From Bacteroidales bacterium (GTDB lineage Bacteria > Bacteroidota > Bacteroidia > Bacteroidales > VadinHA17), in assembly GCA_035529055.1 (NCBI GenBank), contig DATKXL010000133.1, positions 3,870 to 67,869 on the forward strand: 64,000 nt of DNA, read 5' to 3'. Of the stretch, positions 12,047 to 37,143 are shown piece after piece; the first letter of the stretch is position 1; every line of letters begins with the position of its first letter. Position numbers and translations under genes: made by a program. The notes under the pieces were generated by a model, which saw only the letters and a program-made list of their open reading frames with translations, had not been told where the DNA came from and did not search any database.

Positions 12047-12132
12047 ATCTTTCACTCAATTTTGTACTGACAATAAGTCAATCTTCCAATTTTTTGACCT
12101 AACTTTATTACGTTAATTAATTGCATCACACC

Positions 12133-13632
12133 ATGCGACGAGTATGTTTTGTCTTGCTATCAATTTTTATCGTTATGGAAACATTTTCCCAAACCAGGTC
12201 AAATGACCGGCGACCGGTTGCCGCCGGCAGATTCTATTCAGCAGATAAAGAGACCCTTACAAGAGATATCCGGCAACTTTTTGAAAATTGTGTGAAGAGT
12301 CCCGGTAATCTTATGGTGAGAGCTGTGGTCACTCCTCATGCCGGGTATGTCTTCTCAGGCAAAGTAGCTGCATCGGCATTTTCGACCGTTGACCGGAACG
12401 CTACAATAAAAAATATTTTCATAATAGGATCAAGTCATGTAATGGCATTTGAAGGAGCATCAGTTTATAATACGGGGGACTTTATAACTCCTCTGGGGAA
12501 GCTTAAAGTGAACATGGAAATTGCTAACAAACTCAAAAGTGAAAACAGACTCTTTAACTTTCCTGTTACTGCTCATAACCAGGAACATAGCATTGAGGTT
12601 CAGATACCTCTTATTCAATATTATTTTACCTCTGATCCAATGATTGTTCCTATCATTATCGGTACAAATAATACCGGCAGCATTAAAAAGATTGCCGAAA
12701 TACTTAAACCATGGTTCGTACCTGAAAATTTGTTTGTTATAAGCAGCGATTTTTCGCATTATCCCGATTACATGAATGCAAATGAGATTGATAATTACAC
12801 TGCAAACAGTTTAATTTCAGGTAATTCCCAGACATTCCTCGAGGCTCTGAAGAAAAACTCAGCAAAGAATATTCCCGGATTATCAACAAGTATGTGCGGA
12901 TGGACCTCCGGACTTCTCTTACTTTATCTTGCTGAAGGGATTAACAATTTGGAATTCAAAAGGATAGATTACTGTAATTCCGGAGATTCCCGGTTTGGAA
13001 GCAAAGACGAGGTAGTGGGCTATCATGCAATTGCATTGATAGAAAAAAAAATCAAATCAGGATCAAACAACAATATGGCAGATGAGATATCTTTCACCAG
13101 GGAAGAAAAAGATAAATTATTAGATATTGCCAGGAACAGTATCCGTTCGATGTTGTATGATAAAAAGAGACTTTCAATCGATAATGGAAACCTTCCCGAT
13201 CTCTTCTATATGCCCCTGGGAGCTTTCGTCACCCTGAAAATAAATGGAAAACTCAGAGGCTGTATCGGGAGGTTCACCTCCTCCGACCCGCTCTATAAAG
13301 TAGTAATGGAATCAGCCCTCTCATCCGCTTTTGATGACAACCGTTTCTCTCCTCTTACAGAAGATGAGTTTGAAAAAACAGATATTGAAATTACTGTTCT
13401 CGGGCCATTGAAGAAAATCGATAATATTAAAGATATTGTACTTGGCAAACATGGGATATACATAAAAAAGGAGTTCAGATCGGGGACTATGCTACCTCAG
13501 GTAGCAACTGAAAATGGCTGGAATGTTGAAGAGTTCCTTGGATATACATCCCGTGATAAAGCAGGGATAGGATGGGAAGGCTGGAAAAATGCCGAGATAT
13601 TTATTTATGAAGGAATTGTACTTGAAGAATAG
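12133..13632 (+). CDS. Fused AmmeMemoRadiSam system protein B (Memo-like) / protein A (AMMECR1-like) with an N-terminal signal peptide
   Basis: N-terminal half: RRPVAAGRFYSADKETL...VVTPHAGYVFSGKVAASAF (Memo/dioxygenase-B-like). C-terminal half: LGAFVTLKINGKLRGCIGRF...DDNRFSPL (AMMECR1). Leader MRRVCFVLLSIFIVMETFSQ. ATG 12133 preferred over TTG 12121. Confidence 0.8.
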   Translation: MRRVCFVLLSIFIVMETFSQTRSNDRRPVAAGRFYSADKETLTRDIRQLFENCVKSPGNLMVRAVVTPHAGYVFSGKVAASAFSTVDRNATIKNIFIIGSSHVMAFEGASVYNTGDFITPLGKLKVNMEIANKLKSENRLFNFPVTAHNQEHSIEVQIPLIQYYFTSDPMIVPIIIGTNNTGSIKKIAEILKPWFVPENLFVISSDFSHYPDYMNANEIDNYTANSLISGNSQTFLEALKKNSAKNIPGLSTSMCGWTSGLLLLYLAEGINNLEFKRIDYCNSGDSRFGSKDEVVGYHAIALIEKKIKSGSNNNMADEISFTREEKDKLLDIARNSIRSMLYDKKRLSIDNGNLPDLFYMPLGAFVTLKINGKLRGCIGRFTSSDPLYKVVMESALSSAFDDNRFSPLTEDEFEKTDIEITVLGPLKKIDNIKDIVLGKHGIYIKKEFRSGTMLPQVATENGWNVEEFLGYTSRDKAGIGWEGWKNAEIFIYEGIVLEE

Positions 13633-24241: not shown

Positions 24242-26707
24242 CTATTTAATCAGGCTGTATTTGATAGTTGTTATTTCACCTCCCTGATCTATAACAATGA
24301 TGTAAAGGCCTGATGAATAACCGGAAATATCGATTTGAGTAATCGGGTCAATCACAAGATTATTTTTAATCAGACAGAGTCCGACAGAATTATATACGGT
24401 GAAGCGAAGAGGTTGCCAGTCTCCGGTGGATTCTCTTTCAAGGGTAATCAAACCATTTCCGGGATTGGGATATATTTTGACAGGAACCGTTGCGATTTTC
24501 TCAACAGGGTCAGCAAGAGGATTGATCTGAAGGTCATCGATCACCCATCCCCACCCGTTTGCATAGGGATCGGAGAACAATCTGAACCTGACCAGCAAGG
24601 AATCGCCCGAAGAGATTTTGTCGGATACCCGCGGATAAATAACACGTTGCACAAGCATCGACTCTTTCCCCACGTATGTGGAATTTTGTCCGTCAATTGA
24701 GCTGTTATATGCTGTTTCCCACGAAGGAATGATCCTGCTGTCGTAACCACCAGCCAGACTGAACCAGGTCGTACCAAAATCTTTGGACCCCTCAACGACC
24801 ACATAATCATAAAAATCGGTCGAGCCGAACCGAGAGCCCTCCTCACCGGGTTCCACCAGCACCAGTTCCCTGAACGTTAGTACCATACCTGTAGGATCAA
24901 AAACTACCGGGTGACGCAAAACAGCGAAGAAATTAAAAGTTTTATCATCTTCATCAGGACTCTTATACGGATGTTCTGTATGTAAGGCAAGGCTGGAGAA
25001 ATATAAAGGTTTAGCTATTTTAAAACCTGAAAAATAAAAGTCATCCGGGTCATTGGTAAAATCAGTGGAATAGTCTGTCACTACTGAATTAGTTGTCTCA
25101 ATATTAATGGTATAATACCCGGTTTCCGGCATAATGCGGATATTTGGAACTGCAGCTTTATCAATTGCAACAATCCTGTATTGAATTGAATCACCACCTG
25201 TCAATGCTTCCGGCTTTGTATAAAGTAATTTGCTGTATAAATCCTCAGCACCATCAGTTAATCCTATGAATTTACTTGCTCCCTGGTTCACCCGGTACTC
25301 AACATAAACAGTATCAATACCCAGATTGTCAGTGACAGTTGCTTCAAGTTTTATTGAATTTACTTTCTCAAAATAGAATTCTTCCGGTGAATGTATAATT
25401 ACAGGTTTTACAGTGTCGGTGCCAATATAGATGCTGAATGGCCGTTTATCGGCCAGCGAAGGGGACCTGTAAAGACGGTTAAAGTGGTCTTCGGCGAACA
25501 TATAGTAGTCGAGCTTTATATCATATGAAGGTATTGAGATTGTCTGTTTATAAGAATCATCTGTTGATTGTGGGATCATATAAAGGGTATCAGCCGTAAG
25601 AAAGTTGTTAAGAGAATAAACCAGTCCAATCCTGTTGCGATTATATAAGGTATCTGATTTGATTCCGGCCAATAATTCTATTTCAGACAGATACTCCTCA
25701 GTATCAGCGGGCTCATTGTGAATGATCCTGGTGTTTATCCATCCCAGCTCGCCAAGGATCGAGAAAGTAAGCTGACCAGGGTCATGTATAGCTTCGCCAA
25801 GATCGATAAACGGTGTCATAAGTGTGTGTGGCGGCAGAGTTCTTACCTCGTCGAGATGGGAAATGCTGGAACCGGCATCCCACGTTGAGGGAGCATAAAT
25901 TCTGGCTCGTGTTCCGTTCAGATACTTGTTTACCAGCGGGCCGTCGAAATAGAGCTGACCTCCGGTGAACTCTTTAAGAAGGGCAGCGGTGTAATTTGTA
26001 AAAATAAGGGTATCCGTAAGTCTTTTTTCGGTCAGATTCTCAATGAATGTATCATAGATAACCGGTATGGTACCAACGCCATAAAATCCTACAGTACCAT
26101 TGTCATCTGTGTCCATACTGTCAAAAAAGCCCAGGCCATGACAGATTTCATGCAAAACAACTGTAACCAGGTCATATCTCTGAGTCGGTGTATTTCCGTC
26201 AGTTCCCAGGTACCAGCTTACTGAACTGTTCAATATTAATTCAATATCGCCTTCCATATCTTCATTAAGACTTTTTCCGGCTATCTTTTCAGCAAGCGCA
26301 ACCGGGTAGAAAGCAAAAGGCTTCTCTGCATTAATTCCCCATCCGGCAGCAAAACCAGTGATTCTTGAATTACCGAGTACACCACTGGTTGAAATTTTTT
26401 TCCATGATGCATTAATCGTAAGCTTTGTATCAGGAGGAAGTATTGATTTCAGGATTGAGATGGCATAATCCATTGCGGTCATTGCCTGATCAGAAAATCC
26501 TGAATAATAAACAGTAATAGATCCGCCTCCTTTTGAACCTTTACTGTCTCTGAACTCTTTGGGAGGCGGAATATATATTCTGTTTACTTTATTTCCGGCA
26601 TAGCAGACTCCGGTGATCTTTGAGTTTAAAAGAAGCTCCTGTGCCTGAATATGGTAAAACGGAATAATTAAAATAAAACCTGTAAATAATAAAACAAATT
26701 TTTTCAT
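24242..26707 (-). CDS. Secreted putative zinc metalloprotease with T9SS C-terminal sorting domain
   Basis: Signal peptide MKKFVLLFTGFILIIPFYHIQAQ and HExxH motif VVLHEICHGLGF. The C-terminus KIYPNPGNGLITLE...YIIVIDQGGEITTIKYSLIK resembles the type A Por/T9SS sorting domain. Confidence 0.7.
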   Translation of the reverse strand: MKKFVLLFTGFILIIPFYHIQAQELLLNSKITGVCYAGNKVNRIYIPPPKEFRDSKGSKGGGSITVYYSGFSDQAMTAMDYAISILKSILPPDTKLTINASWKKISTSGVLGNSRITGFAAGWGINAEKPFAFYPVALAEKIAGKSLNEDMEGDIELILNSSVSWYLGTDGNTPTQRYDLVTVVLHEICHGLGFFDSMDTDDNGTVGFYGVGTIPVIYDTFIENLTEKRLTDTLIFTNYTAALLKEFTGGQLYFDGPLVNKYLNGTRARIYAPSTWDAGSSISHLDEVRTLPPHTLMTPFIDLGEAIHDPGQLTFSILGELGWINTRIIHNEPADTEEYLSEIELLAGIKSDTLYNRNRIGLVYSLNNFLTADTLYMIPQSTDDSYKQTISIPSYDIKLDYYMFAEDHFNRLYRSPSLADKRPFSIYIGTDTVKPVIIHSPEEFYFEKVNSIKLEATVTDNLGIDTVYVEYRVNQGASKFIGLTDGAEDLYSKLLYTKPEALTGGDSIQYRIVAIDKAAVPNIRIMPETGYYTINIETTNSVVTDYSTDFTNDPDDFYFSGFKIAKPLYFSSLALHTEHPYKSPDEDDKTFNFFAVLRHPVVFDPTGMVLTFRELVLVEPGEEGSRFGSTDFYDYVVVEGSKDFGTTWFSLAGGYDSRIIPSWETAYNSSIDGQNSTYVGKESMLVQRVIYPRVSDKISSGDSLLVRFRLFSDPYANGWGWVIDDLQINPLADPVEKIATVPVKIYPNPGNGLITLERESTGDWQPLRFTVYNSVGLCLIKNNLVIDPITQIDISGYSSGLYIIVIDQGGEITTIKYSLIK

Positions 26708-27216
26708 GTATTGTCCGGTGCACCAGCCGCAGGCGATCTCAGACTCATGATGTCTCTGTCGAACTGATACATGTTGTTTTTTCCAATAAGTTTTATTTTA
26801 TCCAGAATAGTCCTTACCGATGCTTCCTCTTCAACCTGTTCAGTGACAAACCACTGTAAAAAGTTATGTGTGTTATAGTCTTTTTCGTCGAGAGTAAGAG
26901 AGACTATCTCATTTATACTGGTGGTAATGAACTCTTCATGCTTCAACACCTCTTTGAACATCTCTTCAACGCTCTTGTAATCGGTGCCCGGCTTCTTCAG
27001 TGCAGGGACAACTGCTATACCACCTCTTTCGTTCATGTATTTAATGAACTTCAACATATGTATTCTCTCTTCATCAGACTGAACATATAACCAGGAGGCC
27101 ACTCCTGCAAGGCCGCTGTTTTCAGCCCATGATGCCATTGCCAGATACAGGTTGGAAGAATATCCTTCTCTTTCTATCTGTCTGTTGCAGATATCTTCTA
27201 TTTTTTTCTTTAACAT
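26704..27216 (-). CDS. ftnA: Ferritin (non-heme)
   Basis: 170 aa with QIEREGYSSNLYLAMASW...EERIHMLKFIKYMNERGG (ferroxidase-centre pattern). The stop overlaps the downstream ATG (ATGA at 26707..26704). Confidence 0.85.
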   Translation of the reverse strand: MLKKKIEDICNRQIEREGYSSNLYLAMASWAENSGLAGVASWLYVQSDEERIHMLKFIKYMNERGGIAVVPALKKPGTDYKSVEEMFKEVLKHEEFITTSINEIVSLTLDEKDYNTHNFLQWFVTEQVEEEASVRTILDKIKLIGKNNMYQFDRDIMSLRSPAAGAPDNT

Positions 27217-27436: not shown

Positions 27437-29182
27437 TCAGGTAATATCCAGATTAAATGCTTTTTTAATATCTTTTAATGCAGGGTACTTTGAGACCAGG
27501 TAATTATATTTTTGCTCATCAGTATAGAGAATTTCATTGGTTTCGGAAAGATCAACGATGGATTCAATATCAAGATCATTTATAGTGAAGCGTGCTTCAA
27601 GGAAACTTATTAGTTTCTGTTTATAGTTCAGATTGAATAAATCTTTCTGGGCTGCATTGCTCAGATGGATTTTGATCAACTGATCATTTTCCACTTCCGG
27701 TTTTACTGATTTAAACATACTGATAATCCTGTTGCCGTCACCTTTAAGACTTTCAGTAAACTCCTGCCATGCAGCCTCGAAAGCATCAAGGCTGAATTCT
27801 TCCCTTGGTTTTCCCCGTGTGTTCGCAGCCGGCTCATCTACAGTTGATTCTGAATATTCCGGAGGTATCTTCCCGTCAGAAATAACTTCCTTTATCGAAA
27901 ATGATTTTGTCAGTTTTTCTGATTCAATATCATGCTTCCTGGAGGGTCGCATGGTTGTCAGGTTATGCTTCTCAACAATTTCATCAGCTTTTCTGATTAT
28001 TTCAGATTTAGATGGCAGAGGAAGGTCATCATCAGGGATCCCGGTTTTTTTCAGATCACTCTTTTTTTTTTCAGAGGTCTCTTCCTGCTGGTCTGACAAA
28101 CGGCACAGACGTATCAATGAGAGTTCGACATGCAAACGAGGATTCTTACTGGTTTTATAAGAGAGGTCACAGTTGCTTCCTATTTCAAGAGCTTTAAAGA
28201 GGAACTCCACCGGACTTAAAGCAGTCTGTTCAAGATATTTTTGTTTCACAGAGGGTGTTGTTTCAAGAAGCTTCAATGTCTCTTTATCTTTGCTGACCAG
28301 CAAATCGCGCATATGACTGTTAAGTCCCGAAATAAAATTGTGTCCGTCAAATCCATTTTCAAGTATTTCGTTAAAAGTAAGCAGGACAGATGAGACATCG
28401 CCTATCAAAGCGCTTTCAACAGTTTTGAAATAATATTCATAGTCGAGAACATTGAGGTTTTCAATGACTTCCTTATAGGTAATCTCTTTACTGCAAAGGC
28501 TGACGATCTGATCGAAGATTGAGAGAGCATCTCTAAGTGCCCCGTCGGCCTTCTGTGCTATGATATGAAGAGCCTCTTCCTCGGCGCTGACTCCTTCGTT
28601 CCTGGCCACATACATCAATCGGTCCACTATATCCTCAATTCTGATCCTGTTGAAATCGAATATCTGGCAGCGTGAGAGAATTGTCGGGATGATCTTGTGT
28701 TTCTCGGTTGTGGCAAGAATAAAAATAGCATGGGCAGGAGGTTCTTCAAGTGTCTTCAGAAAAGCATTAAAGGCAGAAGAAGAGAGCATATGCACCTCAT
28801 CTATTATATATATGCTGTACTTTCCTATCTGCGGCGGGATCCTTACCTGGTCGGTGAGGCTCCGGATATCATCTACCTTGTTATTGGAAGCAGCATCCAG
28901 CTCATGGATATTAAAGGATCTCAATGAATTGAACGACAGACATGATTCACATTCATCGCAAGCTTCAGAATTTTCCTTTAAATTGCTGCAGTTTATTGTT
29001 TTGGCAAAAATTCTTGCACATGTGGTTTTTCCCACCCCTCTTGGTCCACAAAACAGATAAGCCTGTGTAAGATATTTGTTCTTAATTGCACTTTTCAGCG
29101 TATTTGTAATCGAATCCTGACCAACGACCATGTCAAAGGTTGCAGGACGGTATTTCCTCGCTGAAACAATGAAGTTTTCCAT
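27437..29182 (-). CDS. dnaX: DNA polymerase III subunit gamma/tau
   Basis: 581 aa with RKYRPATFDMVVGQ, GPRGVGKTT (Walker A), Zn module CDECESC, IIDEVHMLS and SRCQIFDF. Confidence 0.93.
   Translation of the reverse strand: MENFIVSARKYRPATFDMVVGQDSITNTLKSAIKNKYLTQAYLFCGPRGVGKTTCARIFAKTINCSNLKENSEACDECESCLSFNSLRSFNIHELDAASNNKVDDIRSLTDQVRIPPQIGKYSIYIIDEVHMLSSSAFNAFLKTLEEPPAHAIFILATTEKHKIIPTILSRCQIFDFNRIRIEDIVDRLMYVARNEGVSAEEEALHIIAQKADGALRDALSIFDQIVSLCSKEITYKEVIENLNVLDYEYYFKTVESALIGDVSSVLLTFNEILENGFDGHNFISGLNSHMRDLLVSKDKETLKLLETTPSVKQKYLEQTALSPVEFLFKALEIGSNCDLSYKTSKNPRLHVELSLIRLCRLSDQQEETSEKKKSDLKKTGIPDDDLPLPSKSEIIRKADEIVEKHNLTTMRPSRKHDIESEKLTKSFSIKEVISDGKIPPEYSESTVDEPAANTRGKPREEFSLDAFEAAWQEFTESLKGDGNRIISMFKSVKPEVENDQLIKIHLSNAAQKDLFNLNYKQKLISFLEARFTINDLDIESIVDLSETNEILYTDEQKYNYLVSKYPALKDIKKAFNLDIT
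28051..28072 (-). other. Putative programmed frameshift / transcriptional slippage cassette within dnaX
   Basis: The minus strand reads GAA AAA AAA AAG AGT GAT CTG A: an A10 run containing A AAA AAG. The -1 frame gives GAG TGA and the +1 frame gives AGA GTG ATC TGA. Confidence 0.5.
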
Positions 29183-29359: not shown

Positions 29360-29397
29360 CGAGCCAAAATCATTTAACTAATTAATAATTGTTTACA

Positions 29398-29751
29398 ATG
29401 TTGAATCAGTATGAGACCGTTTTCATTGCAACTCCCGTTTTGTCTGAGAACCAGATGAAGGAAGCGGTACAAAAATTCAAGAAGATCATAACCGATAACA
29501 GCGGTGAGATCGTTCATGAAGAGAACTGGGGCCTGAAAAAACTGGCCTATCCTATTCAGAAGAAGTCAACCGGCTTCTATTACCTGATTGAATTCAAAAG
29601 CACAGGCGAGTTGATTGAGAAACTTGAGCTGCAATATCGCAGGGATGAAAGGATAATCAGGTTTTTAACCTTCAGTATGGAGAAGTTTGCCGTTGAATAT
29701 GCAGAGAAAAAGAGAAAACAAAAAGAATCAGGAAAAACGAAGGAGGAATAA
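29398..29751 (+). CDS. rpsF: 30S ribosomal protein S6
   Basis: [19 protein letters not shown]...[15 protein letters not shown] 29398 preferred over the ORF-track TTG 29389. Confidence 0.92.
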
Positions 29752-29754
29752 GAT

Positions 29755-30024
29755 ATGGCACAGAACGAATCAGAAATCAGATATTTGACTCCGCCTGCCG
29801 TTGAGATCAAAAAGAAGAAATACTGCCGTTTTAAGAAAAACAGGATCCGTTATATTGATTATAAGGACCCGGAGTTTCTCAAGAAGTTCCTTAACGACCA
29901 GGGGAAGATACTGCCACGCAGAATAACGGGCACATCTCTTAAATATCAAAGGAAAGTGGCCAAAGCTGTCAAAAGAGCCCGTCACATCGCTCTTCTTCCT
30001 TACGTTGCTGATCTATTAAAATAA
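29755..30024 (+). CDS. rpsR: 30S ribosomal protein S18
   Basis: 89 aa with [50 protein letters not shown]. Confidence 0.93.
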
Positions 30025-30036
30025 GGAGGACTGAAT

Positions 30037-30483
30037 ATGGAGATTATCTTACTGCAGGATGTGAATAAGGTTGGACAAAAAGACGATATTGTAACTGTTA
30101 AAGAAGGTTACGGAAGTAATTATCTGATCCCGAAAGGATTTGCTGTTGCTGCATCATCGTCAGCAAAGAAAATGCATGCCGAAAATCTGAAACAGAGAGC
30201 TCACAAAGAAGAGAAGATCAAGGTTGCAGCGCAGGAAATAGCAGCAAAACTGGCTGATATCAGGCTTGTTGTCGGCGCCAAAACAAGTTCATCAGGAAAG
30301 ATCTTCGGATCGGTCAATACAATTCAGATAGCTGAATCACTTAAAGAAAAAGGATTTGAGATTGACCGTAAGAATATTACGCTTCCTGAAGACCAGATAA
30401 AAGAAGTGGGCAATTACAAGGCAATTATTAAGCTTCACCGTGAGGTTAAAGTGGAAGTGGGCTTTGAAATAGTTGCCGAGTAG
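30037..30483 (+). CDS. rplI: 50S ribosomal protein L9
   Basis: 148 aa starting MEIILLQDVNKVGQKDDIVTVKEGYGSNYLIPKGFAV. Confidence 0.93.
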   Translation: MEIILLQDVNKVGQKDDIVTVKEGYGSNYLIPKGFAVAASSSAKKMHAENLKQRAHKEEKIKVAAQEIAAKLADIRLVVGAKTSSSGKIFGSVNTIQIAESLKEKGFEIDRKNITLPEDQIKEVGNYKAIIKLHREVKVEVGFEIVAE

Positions 30484-34420: not shown

Positions 34421-35374
34421 ATGAAAAAAATCTCAAATGAAGTTAAGGTTGGAGCAACAGCCCTGATAACAATAATAGTTTTTATATGGCTATATAATTT
34501 TCTGAAGGGAAAAGATTTTTTCAGCAGCACTGCAAAGTATTATGTTGTATATAACAAAATTGGCGGACTTGCTGAATCGAGTCCTGTTGAAGTAAACGGG
34601 TATAAGGTGGGTGTGGTACAATCAATTAGATTTCTTGATTCATCCACCGGAAGACTCCTTGTGGTGTTAACTGTAGATAAAGGTTTTGAATTGCCGGTGA
34701 ACACTGTTGCTGAAATCACTACGGCAAGTCTTATAGCCGGGATGAAAATACAATTTGTTTATGGTAATGGTCCGGGTACATACCTTGATGGCGATACCAT
34801 CCCGGGGCGTCTTTCTCAGTCAATTATTACAAAAGTAGAAACCGAACTGCTGCCATTGAAGGATAGATTAACAAAGCTTATCAATGTCCTCGATTCTGTT
34901 ATAACCTCAGTGAATGATATAATGGATCCGCAGTTTAAAAAGAATCTGAACCTGGGCATCGCAAGCCTCAGCAATACGGCAAAGAGCATTGATGAGGTTA
35001 TCGGATCGAAAGAAGCTGAACTTAAAGCAACCCTCGACAATATAAATAAATTTACCCGGATGCTTGCGGACAATTCAAATGCGATGAGCGGTACTCTCAG
35101 CAATCTTGAGGCAGTAACCGATACGCTTGTTTCTGCTGACATTTATCAATCAGTCAGAAACCTTAAAAGCAGCCTGGAGAATGCTTCGGTCTTAATAGAA
35201 AATTTGAATAATGGCAAGGGGACGGCAGGAAAACTGATGACAAATGACTCACTTTACACAAATCTGAGCAACAGTCTTGAGAGTCTTAATCAACTTTTAC
35301 AGGATATGAAGGCGAATCCAAAGAGATATGTACATTTTTCACTTTTTGGCAAAAAAAATATTCCATCTGATTAG
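34421..35374 (+). CDS. MlaD/MCE-family protein
   Basis: N-terminal TM anchor VKVGATALITIIVFIWLY followed by the MCE fold GLAESSPVEVNGYKVGVVQSI and a long helical C-terminus. Confidence 0.75.
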   Translation: MKKISNEVKVGATALITIIVFIWLYNFLKGKDFFSSTAKYYVVYNKIGGLAESSPVEVNGYKVGVVQSIRFLDSSTGRLLVVLTVDKGFELPVNTVAEITTASLIAGMKIQFVYGNGPGTYLDGDTIPGRLSQSIITKVETELLPLKDRLTKLINVLDSVITSVNDIMDPQFKKNLNLGIASLSNTAKSIDEVIGSKEAELKATLDNINKFTRMLADNSNAMSGTLSNLEAVTDTLVSADIYQSVRNLKSSLENASVLIENLNNGKGTAGKLMTNDSLYTNLSNSLESLNQLLQDMKANPKRYVHFSLFGKKNIPSD

Positions 35375-35620
35375 GATTTTTCTAAAATTTTGATTATCTT
35401 AATATTAATTTTCCAAACTGAATTGATGACAAAATAGTCCGCATTTTATTCAGGTTTTGTTGAATTTTGAGCAGGAATTTATAATATATTGTAATACACC
35501 GACAAACCATTCATTTTTAATACAAATGATTGACTTTCATGTCATTAAAATAAATGAAAATATTTTTTTTTATAAGTTACTGATGGTTAAAAACATATAG
35601 AATTTTTGAAAAAGTCAAGT

Positions 35621-35650
35621 AAAAAAAAATTTTTTTTTAATTTTTTTTTT
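35621..35650. repeat. Homopolymer palindrome A9T9-AA-T10 in the AT-rich spacer upstream of dnaA
   Basis: Read directly: A9 at 35621..35629, T9 at 35630..35638, AA, then T10 at 35641..35650. Confidence 0.9.
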
Positions 35651-35712: not shown

Positions 35713-37143
35713 ATGAATAAGACACATAATGATGTTTGGAATAATTGTCTGCAGATAATAAAAGATATTATTCCATCTGTCAGTTATAAAACATGGTTTG
35801 AGCCGATTATACCTCTGAAGCTTGAAAACGATGTTCTTACCATTCAGGTTCCGAGTCCGTTTTTTTATGAATATCTGGAAGAGCAATATATTGATATTCT
35901 GAGAAAGACTCTCAGGCGCGAGATAGGTACCGATGCAAAGCTTGAGTATAACGTTGTAATGGAGAATGCCAACTATTCTGACGGGAAGCCTTATACTGTA
36001 AGATATCCTTCAAGAAATAAGACCGATCTCAATAACAAACCGGTTCAGGTACCATTTGATGTCACTCAGCCCTCCATAAAGAATCCATTTGTTATTCCGG
36101 GCATCAAAAAAGTACATTTTGATCCGAGGCTGAATCCTGATTACAATTTCAATAATTACGTTGAGGGTGAATGTAACAGGCTGGCAAGGTCGGCAGGTAT
36201 TGCAGTTGGCAATAATCCGGGTGGTACTGCTTTCAATCCACTTATGATCTATGGCGACTCAGGGCTCGGTAAAACTCACCTGGCACAGGCAATCGGAATA
36301 CTTGTTAAGGAAAAGCATCCCGATAAGGTTGTCCTGTATGTGAATGCTAATAAGTTCCAGACCCAGTTTGTAGAATCTGTAAGAAATAATAACAAGAACG
36401 ATTTTCTTCACTTTTACCAGATGATTGATGTTCTTATCCTGGATGATGTTCATGAGTTTGCCGGCAAGGAAAAAACGCAGGACACATTCTTCCATATCTT
36501 CAACCATATTCACCAGTCAGGTAAACAGCTTATCCTTACGTGCGACCGCCCGCCTGTTGAACTCCAGGGGATGGAGCAGAGACTTCTGTCGAGATTCAAA
36601 TGGGGTCTTCAGGCCGATCTTCAGAGACCGGATTATGATACAAGACTGGCAATCCTGAAGAAGAAAGCCTATAACGACGGTATCGAATTGCCTGAGGAAA
36701 TATTCGAATTTCTTGCTGCCAATATATCAAACAATATCAGAGAACTTGAGGCGGTACTTATATCTCTTTACGCCCAGTCAACACTCAACAGGAAAGATAT
36801 AACCCTTGATCTTGCAAAACAGATAGTCGAGAAGCTTGTAAGTACTTCAAGGAGAGAAATCACCATCGAATATATCCAGAAAATCGTATGCGATTACTAT
36901 AAAATACCCATGGATCTTATTCAGGGGAAAACAAGAAAAAGAGAGATCGTTCAGGCCCGGCAGGTTTCAATGTACTTCTCAAAAAGTATGACAAAAGCAT
37001 CACTTGCCAGTATCGGATCTCATATCGGAGGCAAGGATCATGCTACAGTTCTGCATGCCTGTAAGACTGTGAATAATCTGATTGACACTGACAAACATTT
37101 CAGAAACCAGATAAACGAAATTGAGAAGAAACTGAAGGTCTAA
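35713..37143 (+). CDS. dnaA: Chromosomal replication initiator protein
   Basis: 476 aa with IYGDSGLGKTHL (Walker A), LILDDVHEF, SNIRELEA, and C-terminal DNA-binding KDHATVLHACK. Confidence 0.93.
   Translation: MNKTHNDVWNNCLQIIKDIIPSVSYKTWFEPIIPLKLENDVLTIQVPSPFFYEYLEEQYIDILRKTLRREIGTDAKLEYNVVMENANYSDGKPYTVRYPSRNKTDLNNKPVQVPFDVTQPSIKNPFVIPGIKKVHFDPRLNPDYNFNNYVEGECNRLARSAGIAVGNNPGGTAFNPLMIYGDSGLGKTHLAQAIGILVKEKHPDKVVLYVNANKFQTQFVESVRNNNKNDFLHFYQMIDVLILDDVHEFAGKEKTQDTFFHIFNHIHQSGKQLILTCDRPPVELQGMEQRLLSRFKWGLQADLQRPDYDTRLAILKKKAYNDGIELPEEIFEFLAANISNNIRELEAVLISLYAQSTLNRKDITLDLAKQIVEKLVSTSRREITIEYIQKIVCDYYKIPMDLIQGKTRKREIVQARQVSMYFSKSMTKASLASIGSHIGGKDHATVLHACKTVNNLIDTDKHFRNQINEIEKKLKV

Follow-up and report, generated by a model that had tools for sequence, protein, structure and literature searches.

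Described routes to gamma and the Bacteroidales dnaX gene

Three routes are recognised by which bacteria obtain gamma, the form of DnaX without the tau C terminus: ribosomal frameshifting, transcriptional slippage, and proteolysis. The subject of this study is a run of ten A's (A10) in the dnaX gene of a Bacteroidales bacterium, within a 64-kb stretch of DNA (contig DATKXL010000133.1, referred to below as the window). The run is very probably a programmed site that yields a truncated, gamma-like DnaX and, on balance, we regard it as a programmed transcriptional slippage site of the type found in Thermus thermophilus. For Thermus dnaX (Larsen et al. 2000, as summarised in PMC1088944 and PMC5009743), a single tau open reading frame (ORF) with stops in both alternative frames, slippage of about 50%, transcripts with extra A's, and gamma at about 1:1 are described; the sequence at that site is A9 followed by GCCTGA (PMC3711429, Fig. 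S3). A10 runs are also present in the two-ORF dnaX genes of Flavobacterium johnsoniae, F. psychrophilum, Cytophaga hutchinsonii, Capnocytophaga, several Chlorobi, and Coraliomargarita, for which transcriptional realignment was predicted (Antonov et al. 2013, PMC3711429, Fig. S3). In Escherichia coli, gamma and tau are made from one gene through -1 programmed ribosomal frameshifting (RF00382), and in Caulobacter crescentus gamma is formed by ClpXP proteolysis of DnaX (bioRxiv 10.1101/2022.11.10.516041). Gamma production is poorly documented outside Proteobacteria and Thermus, and the function of gamma remains under debate.

For the comparisons below, 80 dnaX loci from species-representative genomes were used, comprising a close clade of Bacteroidales/Bacteroidia metagenome-assembled genomes (MAGs) at 60-88% identity and distant Bacteroidota, including Marinifilum and Pedobacter, at 50-55%. 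The locus resembles Thermus dnaX in having a sense-strand A run of at least 9 at the gamma/tau junction, in encoding tau in one uninterrupted ORF, both here and in 37 close relatives, and in having stops close by in both alternative frames, with gamma as the predicted short product; the GCCTGA that follows the Thermus run is also the commonest post-run sequence in the close clade. It differs in belonging to another phylum, in having A10 or A11 instead of A9, and in the position of the site, which here is about 64% along dnaX, directly past domain III, whereas that of Thermus is described as further along the gene. Slippage, moreover, is demonstrated in Thermus and predicted here.

With the two-ORF dnaX genes the locus shares its phylum group and an A10 at the gamma/tau junction, but the roles of the frames are reversed. 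In the two-ORF genes a stop follows the run in the zero frame, and tau is made only by a shift. In the window, where the zero frame stays open as far as codon 581, the zero-frame product is tau and gamma is the one that depends on a shift, as is the case in all 37 intact close relatives. The likeness to E. coli dnaX consists of an identical core of 12 nucleotides (nt), A AAA AAG AGU GA, a -1 product that ends in Lys-Lys-Glu-stop, and the outcome proposed, which is gamma and tau from one gene. Unlike the E. coli gene, it has neither a downstream stem-loop nor a conserved Shine-Dalgarno (SD)-like element 10 nt upstream, the AGTGA is not kept in relatives, and the run is longer than the slippery heptamer and is conserved as a run. 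The gamma of C. crescentus likewise lacks the tau C terminus, but it arises post-translationally and involves no recoding signal in the gene. Judged on these features, the window has every sequence-level characteristic of the Thermus type and lacks the structural features of the E. coli type and the defining feature of the two-ORF type.

No description of a single-ORF A10 dnaX in Bacteroidales was found in the literature. The method of Antonov et al. (2013) considers only frameshifted genes, so that single-ORF forms are invisible to it (PMC3711429), and truncating cases such as that of Thermus are hard to detect comparatively (Baranov et al. 2005, PMC1088944).

The A10 site and its predicted products

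The dnaX gene (27437-29182, minus strand) is one ORF of 581 codons and a stop codon, assigned from the list of ORFs and from NCBIfam and Pfam. It scores 765 bits with the NCBIfam equivalog PRK14971, for which the cut-off is 685, and also matches TIGR02397 (dnaX_nterm). The Pfam domains DNA_pol3_delta2, DNAX_ATPase_lid, and DNA_pol3_gamma3 correspond to residues 22-179, 185-230, and 239-368, respectively; since the last of these is domain III, the A10 site lies six codons past the clamp-loader core. Positions 28072-28051 of the minus strand read G AAAAAAAAAA G AGT GAT CTG A, and codons 371-377 of dnaX are GAA AAA AAA AAG AGT GAT CTG. The A10 homopolymer (GAA AAA AAA AAG, codons 371-374), which is the proposed slippage site, occupies 28062-28071 of the minus strand (T10 in the plus strand) and begins with the second position of codon 371; it is the longest homopolymer of any coding region in the window. 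It overlaps the heptamer A_AAA_AAG (28061-28067, minus strand), which has the X_XXY_YYZ phase and the sequence of the E. coli shift site and is a possible site for a -1 ribosomal slip. As seen by reading the frames, a TGA in the -1 frame (AAA AAA GAG TGA; 28056-28058, minus strand) lies two codons on from the run and can be reached by one extra A or by a -1 ribosomal shift, and a TGA in the +1 frame (AGA GTG ATC TGA; 28051-28053, minus strand) lies four codons on and can be reached by losing one A or gaining two. If codons of dnaX are taken at random, the frequency of stops this near in both frames is about 0.02. An earlier note on this DNA had reported the sequence, phase, and frames of the site (28051-28072) and had suggested that out-of-frame reading ends the protein just after the clamp-loader domains, at about residue 375 of 581; every detail was borne out when the strand and frames were read again, and the end of Pfam domain III at residue 368 agrees with the position proposed.

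In the proposed mechanism, RNA polymerase would realign the nascent RNA on the T10 template and so generate a mixture of mRNAs with A10, A11, and A12, together with A9 and A13. The A10 and A13 transcripts would encode full-length tau, either the zero-frame product of 581 residues (computed mass 66.0 kDa) or a form of 582 residues with one extra Lys. The A11 transcripts would reach the TGA two codons later and give a protein of 375 residues and 42.5 kDa (computed) with the C terminus SEKKKE, which is also the computed product of a -1 shift, and part of this product may come from -1 ribosomal slippage on A_AAA_AAG. The A9 and A12 transcripts would both terminate at a TGA after Arg-Val-Ile, with computed products of 376 residues ending in SEKKRVI and 377 residues ending in KKKRVI, respectively. 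All of the short products would consist of clamp-loader domains I-III (Pfam; codons 1-368; 28079-29182, minus strand), the part common to the predicted tau and gamma, and would represent a gamma of about 42.5 kDa without the C terminus that binds polymerase and helicase. The tau-only region missing from the predicted gamma, as judged by frame reading, is codons 375-581 (27440-28060, minus strand), and its binding of polymerase and helicase is presumed by analogy with E. coli tau. We infer the occurrence, level, and efficiency of slippage, as well as the production of gamma, from the nucleotide sequence.

The peptide LPLPSKSEIIR (residues 386-396; 27995-28027, minus strand), about 12 codons past the proposed slippage site, is near-invariant in an otherwise hypervariable linker and marks where the tau-only part begins. 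The C-terminal 200 residues of DnaX are assigned by the source databases to PF28557 (DUF8439), and the tau-specific domains of Bacteroidota are, for this reason, to be regarded as uncharacterised.

Conservation of the run and of the out-of-frame stops

In 64 kb of DNA at 40% G+C, a lone A/T run of 10 is no surprise. Because a single A10 is within chance in a stretch of this size, the case for function rests on the relatives. The DnaX protein of the window is 100% identical to a protein from one "Bacteroidales bacterium" MAG found by database search, and hundreds of relatives of 581 residues, with 74-80% identity, are present in the database. Runs of the close clade begin at gene nucleotide 1111, in the same phase, or at 1105-1114 in five loci with small upstream indels. 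Run length is A10 in 37 loci, A11 in 3, A9 in 3, and A8 in 1, and 2 loci have no run; A10 and A11 together account for 40 of the 46. In a DNA alignment of 38 sequences and 146 columns, with a mean column identity of 57%, the ten A's are the sole invariant block, and codons 371, 372, and 373 are GAA, AAA, and AAA in 37-38 of the 38 sequences. The 4-fold synonymous sites of 39 intact close-clade genes are saturated (mean pairwise identity 0.34), and the 29 other invariant Lys/Glu columns, which serve as controls, have on average 60% A-ending codons, none of them reaching 100%. The invariance includes the three A's 5' of the heptamer, which a ribosomal heptamer would not require. At the level of the protein, the alignment contains a conserved island, E-K-K-K-[S/P]-[D/E], within the hypervariable linker. 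The alignments show purifying selection on the nucleotides of the run, including its length, as opposed to the protein.

At the equivalent junction in the distant relatives the run is A10 in 11 loci, A11 in 4, and A9 in 4, and it is absent from 14. Distant runs lie in other codon phases, as in TCA AAA AAA AAA GGA of Marinifilum and ATT AAA AAA AAA AAT GA of Pedobacter, and what follows the run on its 3' side is a G, C, or T. In the close clade a G follows 37 of the 43 runs. Over the relatives as a whole, the next base can be G, C, T, or an eleventh A. The AGTGA that follows the run is found in the window only, its counterparts in the relatives being GCCTGA, GTCTGA, GAGCGATGA, GCCGGATAA, GAATAA, and others.

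The out-of-frame stops are conserved together with the run and are likewise under purifying selection. In the 37 close relatives used, which have an intact dnaX and 60-80% protein identity, a -1 stop is present within 3 codons of the run in 35 (background 0.345, binomial p 2e-14) and a +1 stop within 7 codons in 36 of 37 (background 0.378, p 1e-14), but it should be noted that these p values overstate the independence among related sequences. The corresponding numbers for the distant relatives are 17 and 15 of 20. In most sequences, the -1 TGA arises from a T at the end of codon 375 followed by GAN as codon 376. The stops are formed by 36 distinct downstream sequences of 21 nt, through TGA, TAA, and TAG; since both the sequences and the stop codons differ, the stops have been kept up independently and not inherited as one block. 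Only where transcripts or ribosomes move both ways does a +1 stop serve a purpose; a pure -1 shift has no need of one. The earlier note had proposed that relatives be compared with respect to the run and the stops. The comparison supports it on both counts: the run is kept beyond what Lys-codon usage would produce (GAA/AAA/AAA in about 100% of sequences versus 60% A-ending codons in the control columns), and stops in both alternative frames are conserved far beyond background.

Some individual loci of the close clade depart from this pattern. In L010 the run is lost, the linker is shorter, and the ORF has 558 codons; in L011 an A8 is followed by GAG CCT GAT, and both out-of-frame stops are kept. 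In-phase A_AAA_AAG heptamers in three loci with no run (L010, L059, and L061) were considered as alternative slip sites and were rejected for want of a nearby -1 stop. When metagenomes were scanned for polymorphism in run length with a species-specific 27-mer, a single contig (L081) was recovered; it was identical, with A10.

Search for E. coli-type stimulators

The sequence of the E. coli cassette was verified against 5,424 genomes, in which it is annotated as "DnaX frameshifting element". Stimulators of the E. coli type are not apparent at the A10 site. The Rfam covariance model for DnaX (RF00382) gives 15.1 bits against a gathering score of 35 (E = 1.2), the 60 nt 3' of the site fold at -5.0 kcal/mol (z = +0.2 versus shuffles), and RNAalifold finds 0 conserved pairs in the 38 aligned sequences. 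A weak SD-like AGGA is present at 28086-28083, 15 nt 5' of the heptamer, and SD-like tetramers within 20 nt 5' of the run occur in 31% of relatives, compared with a background of 19%, but the element is not conserved. There are no promoter-like or terminator-like features at the site on either strand, and no tRNA genes in the window.

Directly upstream, a small hairpin of doubtful role, CCAGCAGGAAGAGACCTCTG (28072-28091, minus strand; -4.2 kcal/mol), ends at the base before the run and holds the AGGA at 28083-28086. Hairpins abutting the run in relatives have a mean of -2.6 kcal/mol, compared with -1.3 to -1.9 kcal/mol at other offsets, and the 32 nt 5' of the run have 47% G+C versus 40% for the gene. 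The hairpin was considered as a stimulator of slippage and was rejected: the tendency is weak, it is absent in many sequences, and there are no conserved pairs. As hairpins of -5 kcal/mol or lower abut the run in only 22% of sequences and nothing is conserved, it is not counted as part of the element.

These results agree with the remark in the earlier note that neither the stem-loop nor the SD-like stimulator is convincing. They do not sustain its emphasis on an E. coli-type cassette, since AGTGA occurs in the window only, the G after the run is not constant, three extra A's are invariant, no stem-loop is conserved, and the Rfam score falls below the threshold. In the absence of an E. coli-type stimulator, the 12-nt identity with E. 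coli (AAAAAAGAGTGA) is best regarded as coincidental. The note had offered two routes to truncation, one of the E. coli type and one of the Thermus type; programmed truncation is strongly supported by the conserved run and both stops, and the Thermus route accounts for them better.

Proposed mechanism of slippage and alternative explanations

Transcriptional slippage is favoured because the whole run is conserved, its length is held at 10-11, the 3' base and the codon phase vary, and the +1 stop is kept. Several observations weigh against this reading. The run is missing from about 40% of the distant relatives sampled, and it is thus dispensable in some lineages. Any A run of at least 7 includes an in-phase A_AAA_AAN, and phase variation consequently leaves ribosomal slippage possible. 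The G that follows 37 of the 43 close-clade runs gives the best E. coli shift codon. Sliding of the ribosome on poly(A) has the same dependence on run length and the same use for stops in both frames, and sequence cannot separate it from polymerase slippage. Finally, A8 runs are common in the coding regions of the window, which suggests that the polymerase of this host of 40% G+C may slip less than that of E. coli or Thermus.

A mainly translational origin of gamma is a possible, though less likely, explanation. According to this, the mRNA would have a uniform A10, and a tandem -1 shift on A_AAA_AAG, or sliding on poly(A), would carry the ribosome to the nearby out-of-frame stop. The in-phase A_AAA_AAG followed by GAG TGA is exactly the E. 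coli arrangement, G is the base after the run in 37 of the 43 close-clade cases, and the -1 stop is the nearest and the best conserved of the two. It is also relevant that the bare E. coli heptamer, without stimulators, gives about 14-16% shifting in vitro (bioRxiv 10.1101/2025.10.02.679949). However, neither a downstream stem-loop nor an upstream SD-like element is conserved, the Rfam DnaX model remains below threshold, the invariance reaches three A's past the heptamer, and the conserved +1 stop is superfluous for a pure -1 shift. Several relatives have A, C, or T as the Z base, and heptamers of this kind are much less shifty in E. coli (PMC5009743). Two general features of the group count against the translational explanation in addition to these features of the site. 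Ribosomes of Bacteroidota keep the anti-SD sequence sequestered, and a second tRNA-Lys(CUU) is present in many members of the phylum.

It is rather unlikely that gamma comes mainly from ribosome sliding on A10, or from a mixture of polymerase and ribosome slippage that is tuned in some lineages by the hairpin in the nascent RNA. The run-length dependence and the stops in both frames would suit such a process as they suit polymerase slippage, and the upstream hairpin has the weak and unconserved character described above. If true, the principal route would be neither of the classical ones, RNA-polymerase slippage as in Thermus or the tandem -1 shift of E. coli. Poly(A) sliding would then have been selected for natural use in an essential bacterial gene, and the interconversion of single-ORF and two-ORF dnaX across Bacteroidota and Chlorobi would be explained.

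A nucleotide-level role other than recoding appears improbable. The run could cause a pause or attenuation at the AAA-Lys codons, which would lower the level of tau or assist domain folding, or it could be an element for RNase action or mRNA stability. Poly(A) tracts slow ribosomes, the run is under selection at the nucleotide level, and it is placed exactly at the domain boundary, all of which would be in keeping with such a role. However, this leaves unexplained why near stops in both frames are maintained through 36 downstream sequences, and why runs are present in dnaX specifically in Thermus, Chlorobi, and Flavobacteria.

Chance, or conservation of E-K-K-K as protein in a Lys-rich linker without recoding, is the least credible explanation, because, although one A10 in 64 kb at 40% G+C would not be improbable, the synonymous positions of E-K-K are 100% A versus 60% at control columns, conservation extends to the out-of-frame stops and to the third position of codon 375, and the residues around E-K-K-K are hypervariable.

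Broken dnaX genes in assemblies

The dnaX gene is broken in seven loci (L038, L040, L042, L043, L044, L052, and L073). L038, L043, L044, and L073 are broken at the run or close to it, and L082 (P0121) is added to them as a fifth, whereas L040, L042, and L052 are interrupted elsewhere in dnaX. The run is A9 in L038, L043, L073, and L082; in L044, a C comes after the A10, and tau goes on in the -1 frame. In broken assemblies the gene callers give a protein of about 378 residues (P0121) and a separate DUF8439 ORF. L038, L043, and L073 are MFD assemblies, which we take to be long-read, and in L038 the dnaX frame is disrupted at one or more further points; in L082 the contig is named in the Flye style and the neighbouring genes are split. 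Overall, broken dnaX is seen only in suspect or unverified assemblies, these being MFD, Flye-style, or Mari contigs, or the L044 record. When the N-terminal 374 residues were used as query, only 1 of the best 120 database proteins ended at the run (P0121, with A9). This rarity, together with the MFD and Flye-style origins and the extra disruptions, indicates that most of the breaks at the run are probably homopolymer errors, while L044 could be a true two-ORF form like that of Flavobacterium.

These loci bear on an explanation at the level of DNA, in which the run would be a mutational hot spot where replication slippage toggles dnaX between intact and two-ORF states, as phase variation or a drifting contingency locus. 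The A9 runs in the four broken loci and the A10 plus C of L044 are what it would predict, but it is very improbable: three of the A9 cases are from MFD assemblies and the fourth from a Flye-style contig, for which homopolymer error is the simpler reading, only 1 of the best 120 database proteins is shortened at the run, and dnaX is essential.

The sequences show that a large group of uncultured Bacteroidales keeps a Thermus-like A10 in dnaX under strong purifying selection. The cultivable Marinifilum and Pedobacter keep the run too, with tau as the standard product throughout. The two-ORF predictions of 2013 are thereby extended to a single-ORF arrangement unseen by programs that find frameshifts, and testable predictions are supplied in the form of C-terminal peptides and transcript length variants. 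For annotators and long-read assemblers, caution is advisable, as A9 or A11 calls at the run break an essential gene.

Neighbouring genes and other homopolymer runs in the window

The genes rpsF, rpsR, and rplI (29389-30483, plus strand) adjoin dnaX and are divergent from it, an arrangement shared with the relative L082 (335-1273). On the other flank are a ferritin gene (26704-27216) and a gene for a protein of 821 residues with a type IX secretion system (T9SS) C-terminal sorting domain (24242-26707).

Other homopolymers are found near dnaX and elsewhere. An A7 (CTG AAA AAA ACC; 28045-28051, minus strand) is located 10 nt 3' of the A10, its first A being the last base of the +1 TGA, and is not kept in relatives. 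A second T10, at 35641-35650, is intergenic and belongs to an AT-rich stretch (35563-35650) between ORFs that end at 35374 and start at 35713. In this stretch a T9 is followed by an A9 directly joined to a T9, AA, and the T10 (AAAAAAAAATTTTTTTTTAATTTTTTTTTT), and it holds 4 of the 6 A/T runs of at least 9 in the window, namely the T10 and three runs of 9. The remaining sense-strand run of interest is an A9 (GAA AAA AAA ATC; 13043-13051, plus strand) within the ORF at 12121-13632, where it sits in the linker between the Memo (residues 32-303) and AMMECR1 (residues 335-498) domains of a fusion protein. A -1 stop comes only after about 13 codons, and by eye no +1 stop is seen within about 20 codons; as a slippage site, this A9 is, in spite of its location at a domain boundary, much less convincing than the run in dnaX.

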